Sequence record: MF327005
Origin: Shigella phage Sf19
Length of the DNA stretch: 64,000 nucleotides
Strand: one strand, 5' to 3'
A program made the translations under genes and the position numbers. The notes beneath the pieces are model-generated. The model made no database searches. It saw only the letters and a list, made by a program, of their open reading frames with translations, and was not told the origin of the DNA. Below are positions 650-42,820 of the stretch, one piece after another (the stretch's first letter is position 1; the number at the start of each line of letters is the position of its first letter).

Positions 650-2225
650 CTTCCTAGAATCTTACCATTGATTCGATAGAATCTATCTCATACATTTAGA
701 ATAATAACTCTATAGCTTACTCTATATCCTCTTATCAAATCAACTATAAATTCCCTTAAATATAAGCCCATAACCCGAAAGGGAAGGGCAATCCCTAAAA
801 CGCTCTATAACGCTCTATACGGGCTTATCATCTCATCTTAAGCAATCATATTAACCTACTCTTAAAAGCCCTTTATAGAGCTTTCTAGAGCCTTAAAAGA
901 ATCTTATAAGGGTATAAGCTTTATTATCTCGTTAGTATCTTGTGAATGGTTACAAAGGGGCTATGAGATAGGACTCTATCGAATCCTATTGATAATAGCT
1001 TTAAAGTATGTTATGGAGTCTTCAAAGTAACGTAAAAGAACCTTAAAAGTAACGTAAAAGTTAGCCCCCTTTACATTCTCTTAACAAAATCTTAACAAAT
1101 GCTACATAGTTATGCTTGTTAGAGACTTGTTAGCCCCTTGTTAAATCCTTGTTAGAGGTATGTTAAGAGCTTGTTAGACACTTTGAAGTCCCTGTATAAG
1201 CCCCTAGAAAGCTCTATAAAGAGCTATACAGGTAGTTGGGGTGTAGTTACTAGGGAGAACCTTAGAAGAGGCTATACAGAGCTACAGAGAGCTTTTAAGA
1301 GGGCTTTATAGAGAATCACTAAGAAGGGAAGGGAACTATAGACCAAGAGAAGTTGTGTTTGTAAACAACCACTGTGACCATGTTAAGAGACTGTTAAAAA
1401 GGTTTAGAACTTGTTAGCACCTTGTTAATTATCTTAACAAAATAACTCTTAAGATTTAACTATTTAGCAACTTATAAGCAACTTGTTAGACTCTTGTTAG
1501 TAATGTTACAGACTGGTTAAGCTCTTGTTAGTTCTGTTAAAAGACTGTTAAGAACTCTGAAGAGATGTTAAGAGCTTGGAAGAGTTGTTAAGAGATTGTT
1601 AATGATATTTTAATAAACTGCAAAGGGGATGTTACAGGGCTGTTAAGGGCTACCAAGCAGATATACATCCTAAGTAGATATTTTCAAGAATCTCCAAAGA
1701 ACCTAAAAAGTAACCTACCTAGTCTATTTTATAAAAATTTTATAATTCTGAATAACTATCTATACACTATCTTATATAAAACAGGAATTAACAGGCTTAT
1801 AAGAGACCTTGTTAGTACCGTGTTAGACCTTGTAGGATAAGCCTTTACAGGGAATACCTGTTTAGTGTTATATAACAGTCTATATAGAGGCTTAGTAATA
1901 CCTAGTGATTCTGCTATATAGGGTACTATCTTGGACATAGAGATTAAGATGGGTATAGGGGCTTCTAAGGGGCTAGGAAGAGGTTAGGAAGGTGATTGTA
2001 TAGGGTTGATTAATGGTAGGCTTAGAAGGCTTTATAGAGGGCTATATAGAGAGCACTATTTAGGGACTAAGAGGTTATATAGATACTATATAATACTATA
2101 TAGAGATGATGCTTAGAGAGGGTGTTTAGAAGGGTATAGATATTTTATCACATATCATGGTGACCCAAGATGAACGGAGTGAATCCCAAATTTTATAAAA
2201 ATTATAAATTTCGTAAATTTTACTC
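650..2225. repeat. non-coding block with two families of short phased repeats (TGTTAAG-type at ~10-11 bp spacing; CTATA(C/G)AGAGC-type)
   Basis: No ORF >60 aa of note; dozens of TGTTA(A/G) units at helical spacing 1080-1190 and 1380-1620; TATAGAG/CTATACAG units 780-1330 and 1850-2150. Confidence 0.75.
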
Positions 2226-2228
2226 AAT

Positions 2229-2250
2229 AAAAAGCCCCAATTAAGGGGCT
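2229..2250 (-). terminator. rho-independent terminator for minus-strand gene 2259-2936
   Basis: agcccc-aattaa-ggggct hairpin with A-run on plus strand (T-run on minus). Confidence 0.6.
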
Positions 2251-2258
2251 GTATAGTT

Positions 2259-2936
2259 TTACATCACTTCACTAAGCATAGTTTGCAATGAAGTTTTAGA
2301 AGTCTGGAAGAAGTGTGTGAACCCATTATGACGTTCTCTTACCTGAATCATTATCTGGTCACCCTTAATCGGGTGTGAACTAATATGGTATTCATTCATG
2401 TTCAGTGCAGCACCCAAACCATCTATAATGTGTCTGAGTATGTCATATTCAACAAATTCTTCTTTACCTGTGACCTTGATACAAACACCCTTGTTAGTTC
2501 TTTTAGGGTTTATATCTTCCATAACCAGCATTTGTTGTCCACCAAGAGAAATCATAGAGAACTCTTTACGGTTCTGCTGCTTAACATACATCTCAAGTTT
2601 CTTCAAAGTATCTTCATAGAACGGATAAGACTTCTTGACAAAGATACCTTCAAGTGGCTCTTTACCTGTTAGATTTCTACGATAATTCATCCGATGAATA
2701 AGACGATACAGGTCACTTTTCTCATCTTTGGTAAAGTGTCTGTCTACATCTTTAACACTAAATGTGATATAATTACTCTCAAGTTCAAACTTTTTCATCT
2801 CTATCAAATCCTTAAAGCATTTCTTAGTAATCGCTTCCCATTCTTCGGAGTTCTTTCTCTTCCTCTTCAGATGGGGAACCATATCTGCTAAGTTCTTCCA
2901 ACTCTTCTTCAGTAGGTGTCCCATAGCTTTCTTCAT
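2259..2936 (-). CDS. hypothetical protein
   Basis: 225 aa ORF, start overlaps next gene stop. Confidence 0.55.
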   Translation of the reverse strand: MKKAMGHLLKKSWKNLADMVPHLKRKRKNSEEWEAITKKCFKDLIEMKKFELESNYITFSVKDVDRHFTKDEKSDLYRLIHRMNYRRNLTGKEPLEGIFVKKSYPFYEDTLKKLEMYVKQQNRKEFSMISLGGQQMLVMEDINPKRTNKGVCIKVTGKEEFVEYDILRHIIDGLGAALNMNEYHISSHPIKGDQIMIQVRERHNGFTHFFQTSKTSLQTMLSEVM

Positions 2937-3409
2937 CGTAACACTTCATAAGATGGAACACCAAAAGCATTATTTGAGTTTGGAGAAATTAGGTTATCTG
3001 CACTAACGAGCCATTGAGTATTTTTGAGATGAGATTTCTCTTCAACACACTCTTTGAATCTTATAAGATACGCATCATCACTGTATACTTCAGTTACAAC
3101 ACCCTTCCCAATAATAGTTTTTGATTCAAAACACATTACATCGTAAATATTACCAATAACTAAAGGAAGAGTTACTTTATTTTCACGTAAGTCATATGGT
3201 GCTAACAAATCTTTATCGGCTTGTAAGTGGGACTCTGAAAAAGCTGCATGAACCATGTAAGCTTCTGAGCACTCCCAGATAAAGCTATGGAGAAGAACCT
3301 TTGCAGCATGTCTTGAACAACCAAGTTCTGCAACAATAGCTTTGTACATATCATCTTTAGTACCGTTGTTAAGCATAGCCTTGCGTACTGTCTCTTTAAC
3401 ATTCTTCAT
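2933..3409 (-). CDS. hypothetical protein (track ORF 2933-3460; internal Met start 3409 preferred to limit overlap)
   Basis: ORF track; upstream gene stop at 3396. Confidence 0.45.
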   Translation of the reverse strand: MKNVKETVRKAMLNNGTKDDMYKAIVAELGCSRHAAKVLLHSFIWECSEAYMVHAAFSESHLQADKDLLAPYDLRENKVTLPLVIGNIYDVMCFESKTIIGKGVVTEVYSDDAYLIRFKECVEEKSHLKNTQWLVSADNLISPNSNNAFGVPSYEVLR

Positions 3410-3698
3410 CTTTCCAATCCTCATCTCTCTCAATCTGAAACTCGTCAGGTAACTCTGCAATAGCTTTCAAGTAATAAGCTTCTTGAATACTGCAAAGTTC
3501 TTCATAACCACCATTCATAAGCCAGTTGTAACCAGCAGGTACACCGTTATCATCGCAGAACCCTGTGTAGAACATTGCTTTATGAATCATGTTAAGTGGC
3601 TTGTAAGCAACTTCAACGATGTAGAAAGTGTTATCTTTCCAACCACCCTTTGGAGGGTGGATACCTTTAACACCTCTGGATTGTGGAGTCATAGTCAA
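3396..3698 (-). CDS. hypothetical protein
   Basis: 100 aa ORF in tightly packed minus-strand array. Confidence 0.5.
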   Translation of the reverse strand: MTMTPQSRGVKGIHPPKGGWKDNTFYIVEVAYKPLNMIHKAMFYTGFCDDNGVPAGYNWLMNGGYEELCSIQEAYYLKAIAELPDEFQIERDEDWKDEEC

Positions 3699-4138
3699 CC
3701 TTTAGAAATTTTTATATCAATGATATTCAAAAGTGCTTGTCTAGATAACTTACCAGATTTTAAGTATGGAAGCAATGGTTCTAGTGCATTATCAATCTTA
3801 ACAGACATTTCTAAGATTTCTTTTGCAATATCTTCTTGAAGGATACTGTATGTGCAAACCCCACTTACATCTTTCTCATCAAACATTGCAATCTGGATAT
3901 CAAAAACTTTGTGGTCAGCATGTGCTATGCCTCTGTACAAGAAGTTTTTATCAAACGTGATAATCTCCCCGCACTTAAATGTCATTCCTTTATCACCTTC
4001 ACCAATGATGAAATCATTAGTGAGTTCTACTGAGAATGGATAACGGCCTTGTTCAATGTTTCTGACTGTACCAAATGCTACACGCTCTCTCGTTGCATAG
4101 TTTACAAGCTCTACTACTTCATACTTCTTAAGTTCCAT
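3695..4138 (-). CDS. hypothetical protein
   Basis: 147 aa ORF. Confidence 0.55.
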   Translation of the reverse strand: MELKKYEVVELVNYATRERVAFGTVRNIEQGRYPFSVELTNDFIIGEGDKGMTFKCGEIITFDKNFLYRGIAHADHKVFDIQIAMFDEKDVSGVCTYSILQEDIAKEILEMSVKIDNALEPLLPYLKSGKLSRQALLNIIDIKISKG

Positions 4139-4180
4139 TTTCGCTACCTCTAAACAGGGGCTTTTACACCCCTTGACAGA

Positions 4181-4390
4181 TTACTCTTCAGCAGATTCTT
4201 TATCTTTCTTTGAAGAAGTCTTTTTATCTTTCTTCTTAGTCTCAGTTGCTGCAATAGCAATGTCAACAAGCTGTGCTAAGTCAGATTTAATCACTGTTAC
4301 TGGTTGTTCGTTGTAGAAACCTTTCTCAAGGTACTCTTTGAACTCTTCCAGAGTGTTAAAGCCAAAAGGCTTGACAGGTGTTCTAATCAT
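4181..4390 (-). CDS. hypothetical small protein
   Basis: 69 aa ORF. Confidence 0.4.
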   Translation of the reverse strand: MIRTPVKPFGFNTLEEFKEYLEKGFYNEQPVTVIKSDLAQLVDIAIAATETKKKDKKTSSKKDKESAEE

Positions 4391-32757: not shown

Positions 32758-35518
<2,761 letters not shown>

Positions 35519-35519
<1 letters not shown>

Positions 35520-35935
35520 TGAAAACAGATTTTGCAATCAATCTTGGTGGTGACTACGTAGCTAAATTAGGAAATGATTCTGTATACGTTGCTCACGGAG
35601 ATTTAAAAATTACGGGTAATCAGATTAGAATTATCCCAGAAGACGATAAAGCTACTCAGGTAGCTCAAAGATTACATATTAGGTGTCTTCTAAGGGCTGG
35701 AGAGGTATTCTTTAATACATCTGCTGGATTCCCTTATTTACAGCTTGCTAAGTTCAAGCAGAAGACCTCTATTTTTGATAATTATATGAAAGGTTACCTT
35801 GTTGAAACGAGAGATGTAACAAACATCTACAACTACTCTTCAACAATGGATAATGCAATGAGAAAAGTGTCAGTAAGATTTAATGCAACGACAACTGCTG
35901 ACGATGTTGAAATTAATACAGAGGTAAACATTTAA
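35519..35935 (+). CDS. baseplate wedge small subunit-like protein (positional)
   Basis: 138 aa. Confidence 0.45.
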
Positions 35936-37404
35936 TGGCTGGATTAACAACTACAGGTTTACAAACAAAAAGATATCAAGAAATCTTGGATGATGTTAAA
36001 GCAAGTCTGTATAGAGATATCTCACCAAACCTTGATGTTTCTGAAGATAGCGAACTTGGGTTATTCTTAGCTTCTGTTTGCCGAGGTCTTGCAGACGTTC
36101 ATGAAATCTTGTCAGAAATCTATGATGGTGGTACTATTGACAAAGCTGAAGGATTCAGTTTAGATGATGTAACAGCTTTGAATGCTGTATACAGATATGT
36201 GGCACAGGCTACAAGAGGCCAAGCTGAGTTCACTGGTAATTCTGGTGCTCCTGTACCAGCCACTACAAGATTAAGAAGCACAGCAGGTAATATCTTTTAC
36301 CCTGTGTCAACTTTCACACTGACTCCATCTTACTGTGTAGAGGCAAACTTAGAAGTTAACTCTTTACGAACAGATGCAAACTATGTTATTATCATTGACA
36401 ACATTGAGTATTCATATCAGCCGACTAGTTCTGATACCATTACAACATTGCTACAGAAACTTGCAGATGCTATTAATGGTGGTATTATTGCAAAGGCTGA
36501 AGTTACTAATGATGGTTCAGTTCTGAGAATCTATAAAGACACTGGAGATATCATTGCCAGAACTAACCCTATGGTTGTTACCGCAACGACATTCTTAACA
36601 TTTACAAAGATTACTTCAATTAGTGACGTTGTAGCAGATGAAACTGGAGCCATCCAGACTCTGGCAGGAACCTTGATTGAGATTGAAACAACTGTAGATG
36701 GTCTCGATAGTGTTTTCAACAGATATGACTTGACAACAGGTCGTGATGAGGAAACTGACACAGAACTGAGACAGCGTTACTTAGAATCTCTGGCTGTTAC
36801 TGGTGTAGGTACTCTAGATGCTATTGTAGCTGCTGTCAAGAGAGTTCAAGGTGTGTCTGATGCTTCTGGTGTAGAAAATGATACTGAGACAACAAACTCT
36901 GATGGTCTTCCTCCGAAGTCTTTTAAGATTGTTGTAGTTGGTGGTCAGAATGATAATATTGCACAGGCAATCTGGGACACGAAACCTGCTGGTATTCGCC
37001 CATATGGTTCAATCTTTGGGACTGCATATGACTTAGGTTCTCTCCCTCACGACGTTTACTTTAGTAGACCAATGCCTAAATACGTTTTTGTCAAGGTTAC
37101 TTACTCTCTTTACGATGAAGAGACTCTTAACATCCCTGAACAGGATATTCATGACAGAATTGTTCAAGGTATTAATGCCTACGGTAGAACTTTGAAAGTT
37201 GGTAACGATGTAATCCCTAACAGAATCTATGGACATATCTATGATGTGATTCAAGGTATCGAGATTAATGAGATTAAGGTTGCACTTTCAAATAACCAAG
37301 CAATTCCACCTGCTGAGGGGCAGTACACAACCTCAAGAATCACTATTGATGGTGACCAGTACACTGTTTGGGAAAGCTCACAGTATACAATTACCAAGGA
37401 GTAA
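35935..37404 (+). CDS. baseplate wedge large subunit-like protein (positional)
   Basis: 489 aa. Confidence 0.55.
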
Positions 37405-37406
37405 CA

Positions 37407-38264
37407 ATGTTTAAAAAGATTGAAAACTTTTATGAGAAAACATTGGACGAAAGAACTGTAACTCAATTCAAAGATAAGTTTATTTACACAAGTCTATTGA
37501 AATCTATCACAGATGAGTTACAATTATTAGAGGATATCAGTAATCAGTTATATACTGAAAGAAATATTCGTGTAGGTGTTGGCACACAACTTGATAACAT
37601 CGGGGCTTTGATTAAAGTCCCTAGACCTATTGGTGCTGATGATGACACTTACAGAGCTATCCTCTACATTCAAATTTTCTTAAGACGTTCTGACACCACA
37701 CCAAGCTTCTTACAAAGAGCTGTTATGACTCTTTACAACGCATCATTCAGCCAGATTTTTGAGCACATTACGCCAATGACTGGTGGAATTGTTATCCGTG
37801 TAAACACTCGTAATAACGTGTTAGATACAGCATACACACTTTCTAAGATTGCTGCAACAACTATTGGTTCAGCAGTTATCCTTAGAGATGTTACCTTAAA
37901 TGGTACTGCTTGGACTCCTGTAGAGGTTGCTGATTCATCTCTGGCAATTACTGATGAGAACAATAACTGGTTTGTAACAAACACTAACAAGGGTCTTATT
38001 ACGAACAACACAGGTGGCTCTCTAGAAGCAAATAAATTAGGTAGTTTTGCAGATGCAGGTGTAAGGGATGGTTATGTAAGAGTGGATAAAACTGGTGGAA
38101 GTACCAGTAAAGATTATTTAAAAGTCAGCAAAACAAACAATAGCAACGACTATTTCATTGCTGGTAAAGAAACAGTAGCAGGTGGTGATTATGGGATTAT
38201 GGCAGAAGTCGCCCAAATCGTCAAAGGCAGAAAAGATAAATCTCAACAAGAAGGAAGTTCATAA
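37407..38264 (+). CDS. baseplate/tail fibre base protein
   Basis: 285 aa from ATG after AGGAG RBS (track start 37368 overlaps upstream gene). Confidence 0.5.
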
Positions 38265-38563
38265 TGTCTCTTTCATGGTCTACAGATACAGTTGATGCTG
38301 ACGGTAACCAGCTTAAAGTTTTACCACCTCCAGAAATTCAAGCCACTGGCCTATTAAGGGGTGAACCTATGGGTCGTCAGTGGTTTAACTATATTATCAA
38401 CTATTTGCTTAACAAAGTAAATGGTACGGTTGGAGAGGTTCGTTCATTTGCTACGGAGCAACCTGATTTAGTTTCCAATGGTTGGGAATTAATTGACACA
38501 GTAACAGGAACTGCACCCACTAGCACGACTAACCTTTACACATACGAATATAAAGGGAGCTAA
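38264..38563 (+). CDS. hypothetical tail protein
   Basis: 99 aa. Confidence 0.45.
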
Positions 38564-38565
38564 TA

Positions 38566-39741
38566 ATGCCAGTAGGTGAAATTCAAATTAGTGCATTGCC
38601 TCAAGCCTCGTTGCCTATTGATTTAAGTGATATCTTTCACCTTAAGCAAGGTATTGAGGATAAACGATGCACACTTGAGCAATTACTTGCTCCACACGCA
38701 TCTTTAAGAAATAACCCACACGGCGTTACAAAGGTTCACGTAGAACTCGGTAATGTTGTTAACGCACTCCAATTAGTGGCTGCTAATAACTTGTCAGACG
38801 TGGTTAGTGTTGAAGAGGCTAGGCAGAACCTTAATATTCTATCAAGTGATGAAGTTAATGCTCTTATCCAGAATCACATTAATGACAAGAATAACCCTCA
38901 CAACACTAACAAGATTCAAGTAGGTTTGTCTAATATTCAAAACTGGACATATTCAAACTCTTACTCTGAAGACGCTGATAAGTATGCTACTGCAAAAGCT
39001 GTGAATGCTTTATACAGGGCTATCCAGAATAGCTATCCAATTGGTACTATTCATTTGTCAGTTAACCCTGCAAACCCATCTACATATTTACTTTGTGGTG
39101 GTACTTGGGAGTTAGTTTCTAAAGGAAGGTCTCTTGTCGGTTATGACACAGATACAAGACCTGTAGAATCAGTATTTGGTTCTGCTACTGTAACACTTAC
39201 ACAAAATAACATTCCAAGTCACACACACTCTGTATTGTTAACTGGTGGTGGACACTCCCATAATGCAACAGTAGTAATTTCTAGCTTTGACTATGGGACT
39301 AAGAGCACATCAAGTTTTGATTACGGTTCTAAGGCCACAAACGACTCTGGAAGCCACGCTCATAACGTTAATGGTTCTGTAAGCAGTGCTGGTAGTCACA
39401 GCCACAGGATTCCATTGAGGGGTTCTGACAGGGGTGGTGTGAATGCTATTACGGCAACGGCTGATGCAGGGGTTGGTAATGCGTCATATACAGACTTTGA
39501 TGGGGTTCACACACATACCTTCAACGTTAATTCTTCAGTTGGTGGTAACCACTCTCACAGTGTGTATATCGGAGCACATGGACACAGTGTTGCAATTGGT
39601 TCACATGGACACTCAGGTACTGTGACAGTCCAATCTTCTGAGCACACTCACTCAGGTACAACTGGTGCATTTGGTGCTGGACAAGCATTTAATATTGAGC
39701 AACCTTCTTATGTTGTATATGTTTGGAAGAGAACTGCGTAA
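38566..39741 (+). CDS. tail fibre protein with His-rich C-terminal HxH repeat domain
   Basis: 391 aa; repeated HTH, HSH, HAH, HGH motifs over the last ~150 aa; C-terminus VWKRTA shared with next gene. Confidence 0.7.
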   Translation: MPVGEIQISALPQASLPIDLSDIFHLKQGIEDKRCTLEQLLAPHASLRNNPHGVTKVHVELGNVVNALQLVAANNLSDVVSVEEARQNLNILSSDEVNALIQNHINDKNNPHNTNKIQVGLSNIQNWTYSNSYSEDADKYATAKAVNALYRAIQNSYPIGTIHLSVNPANPSTYLLCGGTWELVSKGRSLVGYDTDTRPVESVFGSATVTLTQNNIPSHTHSVLLTGGGHSHNATVVISSFDYGTKSTSSFDYGSKATNDSGSHAHNVNGSVSSAGSHSHRIPLRGSDRGGVNAITATADAGVGNASYTDFDGVHTHTFNVNSSVGGNHSHSVYIGAHGHSVAIGSHGHSGTVTVQSSEHTHSGTTGAFGAGQAFNIEQPSYVVYVWKRTA

Positions 39742-39786
39742 TTATTTTATAAGGGGCTGTGTAGCCCCTAGAAAGAGGATTTATAA

Positions 39787-42165
39787 ATGGCTGAATATAA
39801 GCTAAGTGAGCTAAACAGTATTGATACAGTTCGCTCAGAAGATTTACTTCACCTAAGAATTATCAAAAGGTCTGATATGCTAGGTGATGAAGACCGTAAA
39901 ATGACCTATGCAAATTTCCTTGCCTCTTTCAAACTAGAAAGATTCTTACAACTAACTGGTGGGGATATGACAGGGAATCTTGGCATCGTTAAATTAAGAT
40001 ACGGTGGAAAAGACTTATTAGACCCAACAGGTTCTTCTGAGGTTATTCTCGGTGACACTGCCAAGACCTTTAGAATTAATGCAAGTGCTTTAAGATTAAC
40101 TGTAAATGATGCCACAAGGTCTGCAACAGTTTATCACACACTTAATAAACCATCTCCTAATGAATTAGGTATGAGAACTAATACTGAAAATGATGCAAGA
40201 TACGCTATGAAGGAAACTGAAAATACCTTCTTGGCAAGACAAATCATTAATATCAACGGTGTTGGTTTGACACTTAAAAGTATCTTACCAGATGGTGGAG
40301 CATATATTGAAGCAAGAGACTCAAATAATGCTTTGAGATTCACAGTTGGTAACTTGACTTCTGGGACTGATGTTACATTAGTTAACAGCAAAGGTGCTAC
40401 GTTGACTCTTGGTACAAACTCTGTTAGTGTTGACAAGAACTTTGAAATCAATGGTCAGGTTCAGCCTAATAACTGGAACAACCTTGATGCAAGATTCTTT
40501 ACACAGACTGCTGCTGACCAGAGATTTGCAAGACTTAATGCAAGTAATAACTTTGTTGGGGTTAACAACTTCAACGGGAAGACTTATGTTATTGCAGATA
40601 GTAATGCACTTAACTTAAGAGCGGCTACAGAGAATGCTGCATTATTTATGCGTGGTTACAACAGTGCTGGGACAGGTGCTTGGTATGTGGGTCAACCAGA
40701 TGGTACGCAGTCTGAGATTGTTTTAGCAAACCAGATGACAAATGTTAACTTGAAAATTGCTACAGAGTTTTCATTTAACAAAGCTATTAATGTATCTGGT
40801 CAGGTAAAACCAAGTGACTTCGCAAACTTTGATACAAGATATGTTCCAAGCTCTTTAACGAACGTGCTTGCAAGAACTAATGCTGCAAACGTTTTTACTA
40901 ACCCACAAACTATTGTTACTACAGATGCGGCTTTCACATTGCAAAGTGGGACAGCTAATTCATCACTGTATATTGTTGGCGCTAATGCAGACGGCAACAG
41001 ACGTTGGTATATTGGTAACGGTGAAGGCAGTAGGCCAAATTCTCTGTTCCTGTACAACTATTCAAGTGGTGGTGTACAGTTAGAAATTGCTGACACTTTC
41101 ATGTTCAACAGAAGCGTATCAGTAACTGGTCAGGTTCAGCCTACAGATTGGACAAACTTCGACTCAAGATACTACACACAGTCTGCTGCAAACTCTAGAT
41201 ATATGTTATCTGGTGTATCTGGAACTGGAACAGAAGTAGGTGATGCAACAGGTATTGCTTGGAATTCAAAAACAGGTTTGTACAGTGTTACAAATTCAAC
41301 TGGTGGGTCTACTCACTTAGTTTACCAAATGCACCTTGGAGTTGGTACATCTACACCGACTGCACAGTTTAAATTTAACTACAAGAATACTGGAATCTAT
41401 TATAGAACAGCAAGGGATGGATTTGGTTTTGAAGAGGTTTGGGCTAAAATCTACACAGACCAAGACAAACCTACACCTTCTGAACTTGGTGCTTACACCA
41501 AGGCTGAAGTAGACCAACGTATTGCTTCTGCTGTAACTGATTCTACAGACCTCAAGAAAGTGTATCCAGTTGGTATTGTGACGTTCTTTGCTTCTAATGT
41601 CAACCCAAATACAGCTTTCCCAGGCACTACTTGGACTTACTTGACAGAGGGTGCAAACAGAACTATTAGAATTGGTTCTGCAAATGGTTCCGATGTGAAA
41701 GGTCTTGGTGGTTCTGATACGGTGGCTCTAAGTGTTGGTCATATTCCTGCGCACACTCATAGCTTCTCTGGAACAACAAGTACATTTGATTATGGTACTA
41801 AGTACACAGACGCTCAAGGTGCTCACGACCATGACAGAGGTAACATGGAAATCTCTGGTGACTTTGGTTTCTTCAGAAGTGATGCAAACAGCTTCTATAC
41901 AGCAAGTGGGGCATTCGCTATCTCAGGTTCACAAGCCTCTAGGGGTTATACTGGTTCACAATTCACTTATGGTACACCTGTCAACTTCTACGCATCAAGA
42001 ACTTGGACAGGGAGAACAAGTTGGGTAGGTGCTCACGGTCACGGTGTAGGTATTGGTGCTCACAACCACACATTTAGTGGTAACACTGGTGCAACTGGTT
42101 CTGGTGCAGCATTCAGTGTTCTGAACACTTACATTAAATTAATGGCTTGGGTAAGAACTGCATAA
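39787..42165 (+). CDS. long tail fibre protein with repeated shaft modules and His-rich tip
   Basis: 792 aa; internal repeats (NxSGQVQP.DWxNFDxRY); C-terminal HxH cluster; ends WVRTA. Confidence 0.7.
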   Translation: MAEYKLSELNSIDTVRSEDLLHLRIIKRSDMLGDEDRKMTYANFLASFKLERFLQLTGGDMTGNLGIVKLRYGGKDLLDPTGSSEVILGDTAKTFRINASALRLTVNDATRSATVYHTLNKPSPNELGMRTNTENDARYAMKETENTFLARQIININGVGLTLKSILPDGGAYIEARDSNNALRFTVGNLTSGTDVTLVNSKGATLTLGTNSVSVDKNFEINGQVQPNNWNNLDARFFTQTAADQRFARLNASNNFVGVNNFNGKTYVIADSNALNLRAATENAALFMRGYNSAGTGAWYVGQPDGTQSEIVLANQMTNVNLKIATEFSFNKAINVSGQVKPSDFANFDTRYVPSSLTNVLARTNAANVFTNPQTIVTTDAAFTLQSGTANSSLYIVGANADGNRRWYIGNGEGSRPNSLFLYNYSSGGVQLEIADTFMFNRSVSVTGQVQPTDWTNFDSRYYTQSAANSRYMLSGVSGTGTEVGDATGIAWNSKTGLYSVTNSTGGSTHLVYQMHLGVGTSTPTAQFKFNYKNTGIYYRTARDGFGFEEVWAKIYTDQDKPTPSELGAYTKAEVDQRIASAVTDSTDLKKVYPVGIVTFFASNVNPNTAFPGTTWTYLTEGANRTIRIGSANGSDVKGLGGSDTVALSVGHIPAHTHSFSGTTSTFDYGTKYTDAQGAHDHDRGNMEISGDFGFFRSDANSFYTASGAFAISGSQASRGYTGSQFTYGTPVNFYASRTWTGRTSWVGAHGHGVGIGAHNHTFSGNTGATGSGAAFSVLNTYIKLMAWVRTA

Positions 42166-42251
42166 TTACCTTGTTGACTAACTGTCAAGATGGTGTTAAT
42201 ATTTCTTAGTAGGTATTCTCACCATCTTGGCTCAAGAAGTAAGGTGATTAA

Positions 42252-42446
42252 ATGCCAACCATTCTAGCAATCCTCATGAAAAACCTTGGGGCATTCTTTT
42301 GGAAGCTTCTTTTTTCTCTTCTCAGTGAATACATGATTGAAAAAGTGTTCTTTAAGCTTGCAAGATACCTTGCGAGCAAAACAGATACACCTATTGATGA
42401 TGAATTTGTAGATACCTTGGAAAAGGCTTTTAAAGGTGAGAAATAA
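42252..42446 (+). CDS. small hydrophobic protein (possible holin-like)
   Basis: 64 aa with hydrophobic N-terminal half. Confidence 0.35.
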   Translation: MPTILAILMKNLGAFFWKLLFSLLSEYMIEKVFFKLARYLASKTDTPIDDEFVDTLEKAFKGEK

Positions 42447-42820
42447 TGAAGTGGCTTGAAGATGCTTTTAAGAATAATATTGGTGCAATCGTTGTAGGTA
42501 TTTTCAGTGTAATTGGTATGTACACTACAATGCAGGTCTCTGATGGTAAACAGGAAGTGTCTATCACAAATAAGTTACAGCAGTTGGATGGTTACTCAAA
42601 AGGTAACTATTCAGCTATTCGTGACTTACAATCTGATATGAAGCTCCTACAATTAGGGATGGAGAACCAGAAAGTTCAGCTAGAGAATGTTAAGGGAGAA
42701 AACGCTAAGTTGACTAAGACCCTTGATAAGTTCTCTGACAGTGTTAACAACTTAGCACAATCTGTATCAGCTTTGCAAGCAATTACAGAACAAAATACCC
42801 AAAGCACTAAAAAGAAATAA
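42446..42820 (+). CDS. single-pass membrane protein with coiled-coil domain (holin- or i-spanin-like)
   Basis: 124 aa; N-terminal TM IGAIVVGIFSVIGMY followed by Q/L-rich helix. Confidence 0.4.
   Translation: MKWLEDAFKNNIGAIVVGIFSVIGMYTTMQVSDGKQEVSITNKLQQLDGYSKGNYSAIRDLQSDMKLLQLGMENQKVQLENVKGENAKLTKTLDKFSDSVNNLAQSVSALQAITEQNTQSTKKK

Follow-up and report, generated by a model that had tools for sequence, protein, structure and literature searches.

Two genes at positions 38566–42165 of the analysed DNA very probably code for the two tail fibres, short and long, of a FelixO1-like myophage (Mooglevirus), each fibre ending in its own predicted copy of a receptor-binding tip of the T4 gp37 type. 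The fibres share a fold, not a receptor site. The analysed window comprises 64,000 nucleotides of Shigella phage Sf19 (sequence record MF327005), and all genes and segments described below are located on its plus strand.

The window was assigned to Mooglevirus (Ounavirinae), with DNA 96–99% identical to that of phages 3HA14 and Sf13–Sf18. The region extends from the start codon of an ORF of 391 amino acids to the stop codon of an ORF of 792 amino acids. The gene of the short tail fibre (38566–39741, 391 aa) belongs to phrog_2097 ‘tail fiber protein’ (E = 4.9e-131), corresponds to gp52 of phage Sf14 and the short tail fibre (STF) gp26 of phage Bas63, and is 96–99% identical in nucleotide sequence to genes that are annotated as tail fibre in Mooglevirus phages. 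The gene of the long tail fibre (39787–42165, 792 aa) belongs to phrog_4277 ‘tail fiber protein’ (full-length match, 1338 bits) and corresponds to Sf14 gp53 and the long tail fibre (LTF) gp27 of Bas63. The Sf14 proteins gp52 and gp53 are likewise 391 and 792 aa long (PMC11821841). The preliminary description had recognised two tail fibre genes here, which was confirmed by both PHROG families and by the annotated relatives. Orthology and synteny with the fibre pair of Ounavirinae were also found: genes of a baseplate J-like wedge (a Baseplate_J Pfam match is present in the window), a baseplate protein, the LTF platform protein, the short fibre and the long fibre follow one another in the order known from Sf17 and Sf14, with nucleotide identity of 96–99%. 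A module identical by 100% is already present in NCBI. The 99-aa gene upstream of the fibres (38264–38563) encodes the baseplate component known as the LTF platform protein: in a phmmer search it matched chain S of PDB 9NDY, the Bas63 ‘LTF platform protein (gp025)’, with E = 1.3e-54. This gene forms the context of the fibres and lies outside the tip.

The short fibre contains nine HxH motifs, at residues 219, 230, 264, 278, 315, 329, 338, 347 and 360, and the long fibre four, at 656, 680, 750 and 759. All motifs quoted in the preliminary description were located, namely, HTHS at 219, HSHN at 230, HAHN at 264, HTHT at 315 and HGHS at 338 and 347 in the short fibre, and HTHS at 656 in the long fibre. 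The motifs had been called dense, which holds for the short fibre with its nine; in the long fibre they are arranged as two plus two around a His-free stretch of 67 aa. Since the region is of low complexity and rich in S, G and T, such enrichment might be a compositional or chance feature without function. In composition-preserving shuffles (n = 20000, per whole protein and per C-terminal module), the mean number of HxH was 1.5 for the short fibre and 0.2 for the long fibre; the observed count was reached in 0/20000 shuffles of either whole protein and, for the C-terminal modules alone, in 0/20000 (short) and 1/20000 (long). The HxH histidines are kept in about 70–98% of homologues in alignments of 45 short-fibre and 48 long-fibre sequences, although these homologues are only 30–60% identical overall, and they are in register with the liganding histidines of PDB 2XGF (T4 gp37). 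Shuffles, conservation and homology thus refute an origin by chance or composition, which retains practically no probability. No ORF of the window other than the two fibres contains more than two HxH motifs.

The resemblance to metal-coordinating fibre tips, previously noted as a pattern, proved to be homology. The short fibre matches 2XGF with E = 4.2e-25 over aa 146–363, a profile of its 45 homologues matches with E = 1.2e-33, and the long fibre matches with E = 4e-5 over aa 629–769. Both strands of the short-fibre stem together are 49.6% identical to T4 gp37 893–1011 over 121 aa (BLASTP). All seven HxH pairs of T4 are in register, H883/915/929/966/980/989/998 corresponding to H230/264/278/315/329/338/347 of the short fibre, which has two further motifs at 219 and 360. 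The seven-motif register was not found in the long fibre, where the three distal T4 motif positions are occupied by DFG, TPV and RTS in the His-free segment; because only four HxH are present and these three are replaced, the long-fibre tip is, as judged from sequence, a reduced variant of the gp37 type.

The T4 gp37 tip (2XGF), made up of domain D10 (collar) and domain D11 (stem and tip), contains seven Fe ions liganded by HxH motifs, and the substitution H929A/H931A is lethal (PMC6957217). The identity of about 50% to 2XGF and published trimer models (PMC11821841, PMC12609058) suggest that the Sf19 tips are homotrimers with the HxH motifs on the three-fold axis, around which six stem strands would wrap. 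Each HxH would then supply two histidines per chain to an octahedral six-His metal site (Fe2+ in T4), and the metal ions would staple the trimer and make the needle rigid. The fold may be as described with a metal that is not uniformly iron, the collar-proximal IP[SA]HTHS (219, 656) binding zinc or an available divalent ion; we consider this unlikely. The first HxH lies within ‘TV(T/A)L....IP.HTH’, where the stem meets the collar, and is the best kept of all motifs (98% in both alignments); the C-terminal region of gp12 has ‘QQMSYHKHAGG’ in the equivalent position. In gp12, the short fibre of T4, this His pair binds Zn, as is known from the literature on the gp12 crystal structure. However, all seven stem sites of 2XGF, to which the short-fibre stem is so similar, are described as iron (PMC6957217), and no sequence feature separates Fe from Zn.

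The base of the putative needle is a collar domain. The Pfam family Gp10_C (PF21939) was detected in the short fibre with 63.5 bits, above the gathering cutoff of 27, as a single envelope at aa 155–390 covering profile positions 4–139 of 139; with 25.9 bits the long fibre narrowly misses this cutoff, but nearly all of its homologues have a precomputed PF21939 match. The N-terminal collar half of the short fibre shares 44% identity with T4 gp10. AF2 monomer predictions of both C-terminal modules, made with the alignments of 45 and 48 homologues (mean pLDDT 66), were confident in both halves of the collar (high pLDDT) and showed strand ladders flanking a low-confidence loop, while the heads of both modules mostly had pLDDT <50; the best fold matches of the modules were T4 gp10 and gp11. 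The alignments and, indirectly, these models indicate that stem and head have been inserted into the collar domain, which the returning C-terminus completes. Accordingly worded for the chain, a small collar with the fold of T4 gp10, gp11, gp12 and gp37 would be interrupted by a long beta-hairpin, the chain running out along the stem, forming a small head at the turn, returning along the stem and contributing the last collar strand (...W-x-R-T-A).

The common terminus had been called near-identical. The short fibre ends in ...YVVYVWKRTA and the long fibre in ...KLMAWVRTA, both thus ending in W-x-R-T-A; the agreement extends to the last five residues (WKRTA and WVRTA), whereas the modules overall are only 29% identical. 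In the alignment with T4 and according to published structures (PMC6957217; PMC12609058), this segment is not part of the tip, but the last beta-strand of the gp10/gp12/gp37 collar. The corresponding endings are RWIRIA in T4 gp10 and IVRLA in T4 gp37, and, since WxRxA also ends gp10, this ending is a signature of the collar fold rather than a sign of recent copying. In tips of the gp37 type the chain returns to the collar after the hairpin (PMC6957217; PMC12609058); with the chain doubling back, the fibres end in HxH only by sequence, not spatially, and the receptor-binding head would lie mid-sequence. A conserved end on two otherwise different fibres would also be expected of an intramolecular chaperone that is cleaved off once the trimer has formed, as happens in fibres of the endosialidase type or the L-shaped fibres of T5. 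This has very little probability: a C-terminal chaperone or peptidase domain of the Peptidase_S74 type is absent from both fibres in Pfam searches at E up to 0.1, the only C-terminal match being Gp10_C, and the terminus aligns to the final strand of both T4 gp10 and T4 gp37, a strand that the mature proteins retain in the solved structures.

In the short fibre, aa 1–154 (38566–39027) form the N-terminal region and shaft, delimited by sequence and DNA repeat D5, in which the repeat ‘NNPHxxxKxxVxLxN’ occurs twice, at aa 49 and at aa 109; by comparison with Bas63 and Sf14 (PMC12609058, PMC11821841), the N-terminus probably binds the baseplate. The N-terminal part of the collar follows at aa 155–218 (39028–39219; YPIGTI...GGTWELVSKGRSLVG...TVTLTQNNIP). 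The ascending stem strand at aa 219–280 (39220–39405), delimited by alignment to 2XGF and T4 gp37, carries HxH 219/230/264/278 and two FDYG(T/S)K repeats; its histidines are kept in 73–98% of the 45 homologues. The head at the hairpin turn, aa 281–314 (39406–39507; pLDDT <50), aligns to aa 932–959 of the T4 gp37 tip (borders from PMC6957217) and is the predicted receptor-contacting tip. The descending strand at aa 315–362 (39508–39651), aligned in the same way, carries HxH 315/329/338/347/360 with a 9-residue period HxHSVxIGx. The collar return, aa 363–391 with the stop codon (39652–39741; pLDDT 85), was identified by similarity to T4 gp10 and the end of Gp10_C; its final strand, ...NIEQPSYVVYVWKRTA, is 54% identical to the last 13 aa of T4 gp10 (...NIQPYITVYRWIRIA).

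The long fibre begins with an N-terminal attachment region, repeats and a PF12604 domain at aa 1–589 (39787–41553), recognised from Pfam and DNA repeats D1/D2. Three gp37_trimer repeats of about 110 aa each (PF20744) are present, the spacing of D1/D2 being 345/330 nt; the PF12604 domain at aa 478–587 is related to the S/S' fibre of phage Mu, and aa 477–582 match PDB 8JU3 (E = 2.6e-22). The N-terminal collar part at aa 590–655 (41554–41751; YPVGIV...GTTWTYL...TVALSVGHIP), delimited by alignments to the short-fibre collar and T4 gp37, was predicted with pLDDT 87–89 and has T4 gp10 as its top Foldseek matches. Alignments also define the short ascending stem at aa 656–682 (41752–41832), with HxH 656/680, kept in 98% of the 48 homologues, and one FDYGTK repeat; the His-free aromatic-rich head at aa 683–749 (41833–42033), with 13 F/Y/W in 67 aa, at the place where relatives carry further HxH; and the descending stem at aa 750–761 (42034–42069; GAHGHGVGIGAHNH), with HxH 750/759 kept in 88–98%. 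The head is variable and indel-rich in the 48-homologue alignment (A2), with pLDDT 41–51. The collar return, aa 762–792 with the stop codon (42070–42165), ends in the final strand ...NTYIKLMAWVRTA, as aligned to the short fibre and T4 gp37; W209 of the terminus is invariant and R211 nearly invariant in A2 (pLDDT 77–90). Read in this way, the needle of the short fibre would be long, holding up to nine metal sites and bearing a head of 34 aa, and that of the long fibre would be short, with four sites and an aromatic, His-free head of 67 aa.

The head at the hairpin turn is the hypervariable segment of both modules. Column entropy in the short fibre is highest in the head, about 3.1 bits (aa 281–310) compared with 1.0–2.1 elsewhere, and aa 690–730 of the long fibre combine high entropy with gaps of up to 62–70%. 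Within the genus, identity to Citrobacter phage Michonne is 17–27% in head windows (27% in those of the short fibre) and 83–100% in collar and terminus. Specificity would therefore reside in this hypervariable head. A role in recognition was also considered for the HxH-bound metal itself, with iron-loaded tips baiting siderophore or iron-uptake receptors; such a ‘Ferrojan horse’ hypothesis exists for HxH-bearing fibres, as cited in PMC11705849, and about 78 metal sites per virion would be expected here (6 fibres × 9 and 6 fibres × 4). However, the ions of T4 lie buried along the axis of the trimer, and specificity has been mapped there to residues on the tip surface (PMC6957217), the LPS core is reported or hypothesised as the receptor of Sf14-like and FelixO1-like phages (PMC11821841), and the variable, and so specificity-bearing, part in Sf19 is the His-poor head. 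Siderophore mimicry was rejected on account of the buried ions and of this variability, and we regard it as highly improbable.

The preliminary description further proposed that the tip, shared by the two fibres, reflects module exchange and a common receptor-binding or folding domain. The folding domain is indeed common, as both fibres have the collar and the HxH stem. A recent copying or exchange of the tip between the two fibre genes, giving one common receptor-binding domain, could account for the same domain order, the same last five residues and the BLASTP match between the C-termini (E = 2e-17). However, alignment of the two C-terminal modules over about 240 aa gave only the 29% identity mentioned above, with 17% gaps. 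At the DNA level the two genes have only short, imperfect matches in common, of which the longest spans 42 nt at 74%, and recent gene conversion was rejected on this basis. The short-fibre stem is nearer to T4 gp37 (49.6%) than to the long fibre, the long module is nearer to prophage fibres of Photorhabdus, Erwinia and Pragia (44–48%) than to its neighbour, and the shared ending is that of gp10 as well. The heads, 34 aa (281–314) in the short fibre and 67 aa (683–749) in the long fibre, are unrelated in length and sequence. A recent exchange is thus most improbable; exchange does occur, but between phages. Since the heads are unrelated, a common receptor-binding domain is not supported, and the two fibres most likely recognise different receptor structures.

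Among known systems, the closest are gp52 and gp53 of Sf14, a phage of the same genus with the same gene order and fibre lengths of 391/792 aa, and about 96% nucleotide identity across the region. In tail cryo-EM of Sf14, fibres of about 430 and 630 Å are both folded back along the tail, and AlphaFold trimers of both proteins were docked into the map of the tail (Commun Biol 2025, PMC11821841). There, gp52 was described with a C24-like domain and a domain like the T4 gp10 C-terminus, and gp53 with a T4 gp37-like distal tip, while HxH and iron are mentioned for the central spike only, not for the fibres (PMC11821841). The motif-by-motif map, with nine and four HxH and a split collar, comes from the present analysis. 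STF gp26 and LTF gp27 of Bas63 (JohannRWettstein, Felixounavirus) represent the same two-fibre arrangement in the same subfamily; both have a T4 gp37-like tip of collar, HxH needle and small head, in which the chain doubles back and variability is concentrated (Sci Adv 2025, PMC12609058). Bas63 belongs to another genus, and its fibres are reported to be about 52% identical to those of Sf14 (PMC12609058); its STF has seven HxH and its LTF six, compared with nine and four in Sf19, and the distal stem of the long fibre is replaced in Sf19 by the His-free aromatic head.

Similarity to T4 gp37 includes the FDYGTK repeat, the 9-residue HxHxVxIG period, the collar with a C-terminal strand and seven HxH in the short fibre. 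However, gp37 (1026 aa) makes up the distal half of a fibre built from four proteins and depends on gp38 and gp57A, a dependence that belongs to T4 gp37 itself rather than to the fold; the tips of Sf19, in contrast, sit on fibres of one protein each that attach directly to a simple Mu-like baseplate, and the short-fibre collar is nearer to gp10 than to gp37. With T4 gp38 as query, tblastn over the window, which covers about 64 kb out of about 88 kb, gave nothing better than E = 2.7. The C-terminal domain of T4 gp10 (PDB 2FKK; PF21939) ends in ...VYRWIRIA, similar to ...VYVWKRTA of the short fibre; gp10 is a baseplate wedge protein without the HxH stem insertion, and in Sf19 the same domain is the base of the receptor-binding needle at the distal fibre end. 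Prophage and P2/Mu-type fibre tips of Enterobacterales (Photorhabdus, Erwinia, Pragia) show 44–54% identity to the long module over at least 93% of its length; these proteins, with PF21939 together with PF03406 or PF03335, have the same collar, HxH and terminus on other shafts, mostly with 5–6 HxH and shorter heads.

The HxH tips of both fibres are thus real but ordinary, having already been described for close relatives; a gp37-like HxH tip on both fibres was explicitly stated in 2025 for Bas63 (PMC12609058). The finding adds little, as published phages carry essentially identical proteins and the fold is solved in T4; the unequal HxH counts, nine and four, are a small new detail. The map is useful for annotation and host-range engineering of Moogleviruses of Shigella and E. 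coli: the swappable receptor-binding head would be aa 281–314 in the short fibre and aa 683–749 in the long fibre, and both collar halves, the HxH stem and the WxRTA strand are the parts to retain for folding. More tentatively, and with somewhat less than even likelihood, the long fibre of the Sf13–Sf18/3HA14 clade could carry a distinct uncharacterised type of head on a minimal needle of two plus two sites, the 67-aa His-free aromatic head having replaced the distal metal-stapled stem with its three HxH sites, which is retained in Michonne, where the long-fibre homologue has six HxH. The framing motifs of this head (HDHDRGNMEISG...F.ASR.WTG) recur in 290-aa proteins of uncultured phages. If this is true, most metal sites would be dispensable, the nine-site short fibre would have a longer needle than T4, and needle length would be a tunable parameter of host range.

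The region 38566-42165 is exactly occupied by two adjacent ORFs on the plus strand, 38566-39741 (391 aa, short fibre) and 39787-42165 (792 aa, long fibre). Both match PHROG tail fibre families (E=4.9e-131 and 1338 bits). A megablast search with the query 38200-42300 yielded 20 phage records with at least 80% query coverage, and the identity to Escherichia phage vB_EcoM_3HA14 and Shigella phages KPS64 and Sf13-Sf18 was 96-99%. These relatives are FelixO1-like myophages of the genus Mooglevirus, subfamily Ounavirinae, and in their annotation both ORFs are labelled as tail fibre proteins.

The fibre genes are located in a tail/baseplate gene block together with genes of a Baseplate_J-like wedge protein (35935-37404), a baseplate protein (37368-38264, plus strand) and, just upstream of the short fibre, a 99-aa ORF (38264-38563, plus strand). 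The latter is 'hypothetical' in the annotation of relatives, and its homologue is listed as 'Homolog of T4 gp11?' for phage Sf14 (PMC11821841). Its match to the 'LTF platform protein (gp025)' of phage Bas63 (PDB 9NDY chain S, E=1.3e-54) identifies its product as the baseplate platform that carries the long fibre. The baseplate ORF, as called mechanically, has a TTG start and overlaps the Baseplate_J gene at the end of the latter. Both the PHROG match, spanning aa 14-298 of its product, and the length of 285 aa annotated in Sf17 point to the ATG at codon 14 (window position 37407) as the true start. Downstream of the long fibre, two small plus-strand ORFs, namely, 42252-42446 (64 aa, hydrophobic N-terminus, phrog_402 of unknown function) and 42446-42820 (124 aa, N-terminal hydrophobic segment and coiled coil, phrog_4038, 'putative holin' in Sf17), are followed by genes of thymidylate synthase and dihydrofolate reductase on the opposite strand. 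In T4, gene 37 is followed by the fibre chaperone gene 38 and then by the holin gene t.

Nine HxH motifs were found in the short fibre (aa 219, 230, 264, 278, 315, 329, 338, 347 and 360) and four in the long fibre (aa 656, 680, 750 and 759), and all motifs and both termini quoted in the preliminary description are present in these proteins. Composition-preserving shuffles gave on average 1.5 and 0.2 motifs for the short and long fibres, respectively, with the observed count reached in 0 of 20000 for either protein; more than two HxH motifs were found in no further ORF of the 64-kb window. Accordingly, the pattern is real and not due to chance. The motifs, described as dense in both fibres, are so in the short fibre, but not in the long one, with only four. 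The near identity of the termini extends to the last five residues (WKRTA and WVRTA), while the C-terminal modules as a whole, comprising the collar, the HxH stem and the head, share 29% identity over ~240 aa.

In T4 gp37, domain D10 (residues 811-881 and 1010-1026) has a 'collar' fold, also present in gp12, gp10 and gp11, and is interrupted by the inserted domain D11 (882-1009), consisting of the stem (882-931 and 960-1009) and the tip; the needle contains seven iron atoms coordinated by histidines of three chains, and replacement of H929 or H931 by alanine is lethal (PMC6957217). The C-terminal half of the short fibre matches the gp37 chain in the crystal structure of the tip of the T4 long tail fibre (PDB 2XGF) with E=4.2e-25, and the profile of 45 short-module homologues matches it with E=1.2e-33; BLASTP showed 49.6% identity over 121 aa to T4 gp37 aa 893-1011. 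The phmmer alignment places each of the seven HxH pairs of T4 gp37 (H883, 915, 929, 966, 980, 989 and 998) opposite an HxH pair of the short fibre (230, 264, 278, 315, 329, 338 and 347, respectively). One additional short-fibre motif lies on the outward strand (219) and another on the return strand (360).

The Pfam domain Gp10_C (PF21939, cutoff 27 bits) is found in the short fibre as a single envelope, aa 155-390, matching profile positions 4-139 of 139 with 63.5 bits. The envelope is 236 aa long but corresponds to only 136 profile positions, so an insertion of about 100 aa or more interrupts the collar. In the N-terminal part of the collar, short-fibre residues 144-196 are 44% identical to T4 gp10 aa 441-493, and the C-terminal 13 residues share 54% identity with the gp10 terminus. 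The C-terminal sequences of the short fibre, NIEQPSYVVYVWKRTA, and the long fibre, LNTYIKLMAWVRTA, align with the ends of T4 gp10, NIQPYITVYRWIRIA, and gp37, NIAFNYIVRLA; therefore, the common C-terminus is the last strand of the collar fold, located at the base of the needle, and not a part of the fibre tip as initially proposed. The D10/D11 layout of T4 gp37 can be read in the sequences of both fibre proteins. The N-terminal half of the short fibre contains the repeat 'NNPH(G/N)xT(K)xxV(E/G)L(G/S)N' twice, 60 aa apart (38710-38743 and 38890-38923, plus strand); it is detectable also in DNA (34 nt, 74%) and resembles the repeats typical of fibre shafts.

The long fibre has a weaker match to 2XGF (E=4e-5) than the short fibre, and its score with Gp10_C, 25.9 bits, is slightly below the cutoff. 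Its N-terminal 589 aa comprise three PF20744 repeats and a PF12604 domain related to the S/S' fibre of phage Mu (PDB 8JU3, E=2.6e-22). The three shaft repeats (gp37_trimer, 40447-41200, plus strand) are ~110-115 aa long, with DNA spacing of 345 and 330 nt. Compared with phages KMM2 and ESh22, the third repeat (aa ~360-450) and the following PF12604 domain contain windows of 27-37% identity, against 97-100% elsewhere, and represent a second hot spot of divergence among Moogleviruses. In Citrobacter phage BSwM KMM2, the annotation divides the long fibre (1888-4263 of its locus) into two ORFs of 596 and 189 aa, with the break just before the collar domain; in Shigella phage vB_SflM_004, the fibre region consists of five annotated pieces, each named 'tail fiber protein'. 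Such splits are probably sequencing frameshifts or genuine truncations.

The long-fibre head (67 aa) contains 13 aromatic residues and no histidine, and is located where T4 and Citrobacter phage Michonne, whose homologue has six HxH motifs, carry three further motifs. A similar head frame (DRGNMEI[ST]G...F.ASR.WT) was found in 290-aa proteins of uncultured phages. This histidine-free aromatic head is the least ordinary element of the region and may be an uncharacterised head type.

The preliminary description took the shared features of the two fibres to suggest module exchange. Apart from the low identity of the modules, DNA matches between the two genes reach 42 nt at most (at 74%), and the short stem is nearer to T4 gp37 than to the long fibre, and the long module nearer to fibres of Photorhabdus, Erwinia and Pragia prophages (44-48% identity, coverage of at least 93%) than to the short one. 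These data argue against exchange between the two genes; the modules have one fold, but are either old diverged copies or separate acquisitions. Exchange of tip modules does happen, but from phage to phage and not within this genome. Of the proposed common receptor-binding or folding domain, the common fold is retained, but a common head is not, as no similarity was detected between the heads (34 and 67 aa). Overall, the observation is confirmed and the initial interpretation is partly supported: it holds for the resemblance to a metal-coordinating fibre tip, here by homology to that of T4 gp37, but not for the terminus as tip or the exchange.

AlphaFold2 monomer models of both modules, built with the short-module and long-module alignments, had a mean pLDDT of 66. 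The N-terminal parts of the collar reached 83-89 and its C-terminal strands 85 (short) and 77-90 (long), and beta-strand ladders flank a central low-confidence loop (module positions 145-166 and 111-164, respectively). The models, which bear on a single chain and not on the trimer, agree with the collar assignment. Among 45 short-module and 48 long-module homologues, the HxH histidines are retained in about 70-98%, the collar-proximal pair in 98%, while the hairpin-turn segment is the most variable, with entropy of ~3.1 bits versus 1.0-2.1 elsewhere and many indels. Within the genus, identity in 30-aa windows against Michonne falls to 27% in the short-fibre head. The corresponding minima of the long fibre are 17-33% in the mid-shaft and 20-23% in its head, and the collar and terminus remain at 83-100%. 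A head in contact with the receptor, as in T4, would be expected to vary in this way.

Alongside the observed T4 tip homology, HxH register, split collar, conservation and variability pattern and genomic context including the LTF platform protein, the T4 structure and published models of relatives suggest how the fibres may work. Each fibre would be a homotrimer, in which each HxH level would form an octahedral site of six histidines on the axis, binding a metal ion (Fe2+ in T4), and the ions would stabilise and stiffen the needle. The head at the hairpin turn would bind the receptor, and the two fibres may recognise different structures; LPS core is the receptor class hypothesised for this phage group (PMC11821841). 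If all motifs are occupied and six fibres of each kind are present, a virion would carry ~78 fibre-bound ions.

Cryo-EM of Sf14 showed gp52 (391 aa, ~430 A) and gp53 (792 aa, ~630 A) as fibres folded along the tail; gp52 has domains similar to the T4 gp10 C-terminus and C24, and the distal tip of gp53 resembles T4 gp37. HxH motifs and iron were treated only for the central spike (PMC11821841). The central baseplate spike protein of the window (34878-35519, plus strand, 213 aa) has one HTH motif at aa 194-196, exactly where H194 and H196 form the iron site of the gp47 needle in Sf14; the tail would thus have a third kind of HxH metal site. For Bas63 (Felixounavirus), a T4 gp37-like tip was described on short and long fibres alike. 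It consists of a collar, a needle in which HxH motifs are conserved (seven in the short fibre, six in the long one) and a small head; the chain turns back on itself, and the tip concentrates variability (PMC12609058). According to tblastn, the short module is matched in 709 phage records, including T4-like gp37 genes and lambdoid side tail fibres, and many Felixounaviruses have matches at two places per genome. Thus, in substance the finding is known, and the feature is a well-understood module, already published for these phages. New here are the residue-level map of the Mooglevirus proteins, the unequal numbers of sites (nine and four) and the corrected interpretation of the shared terminus.
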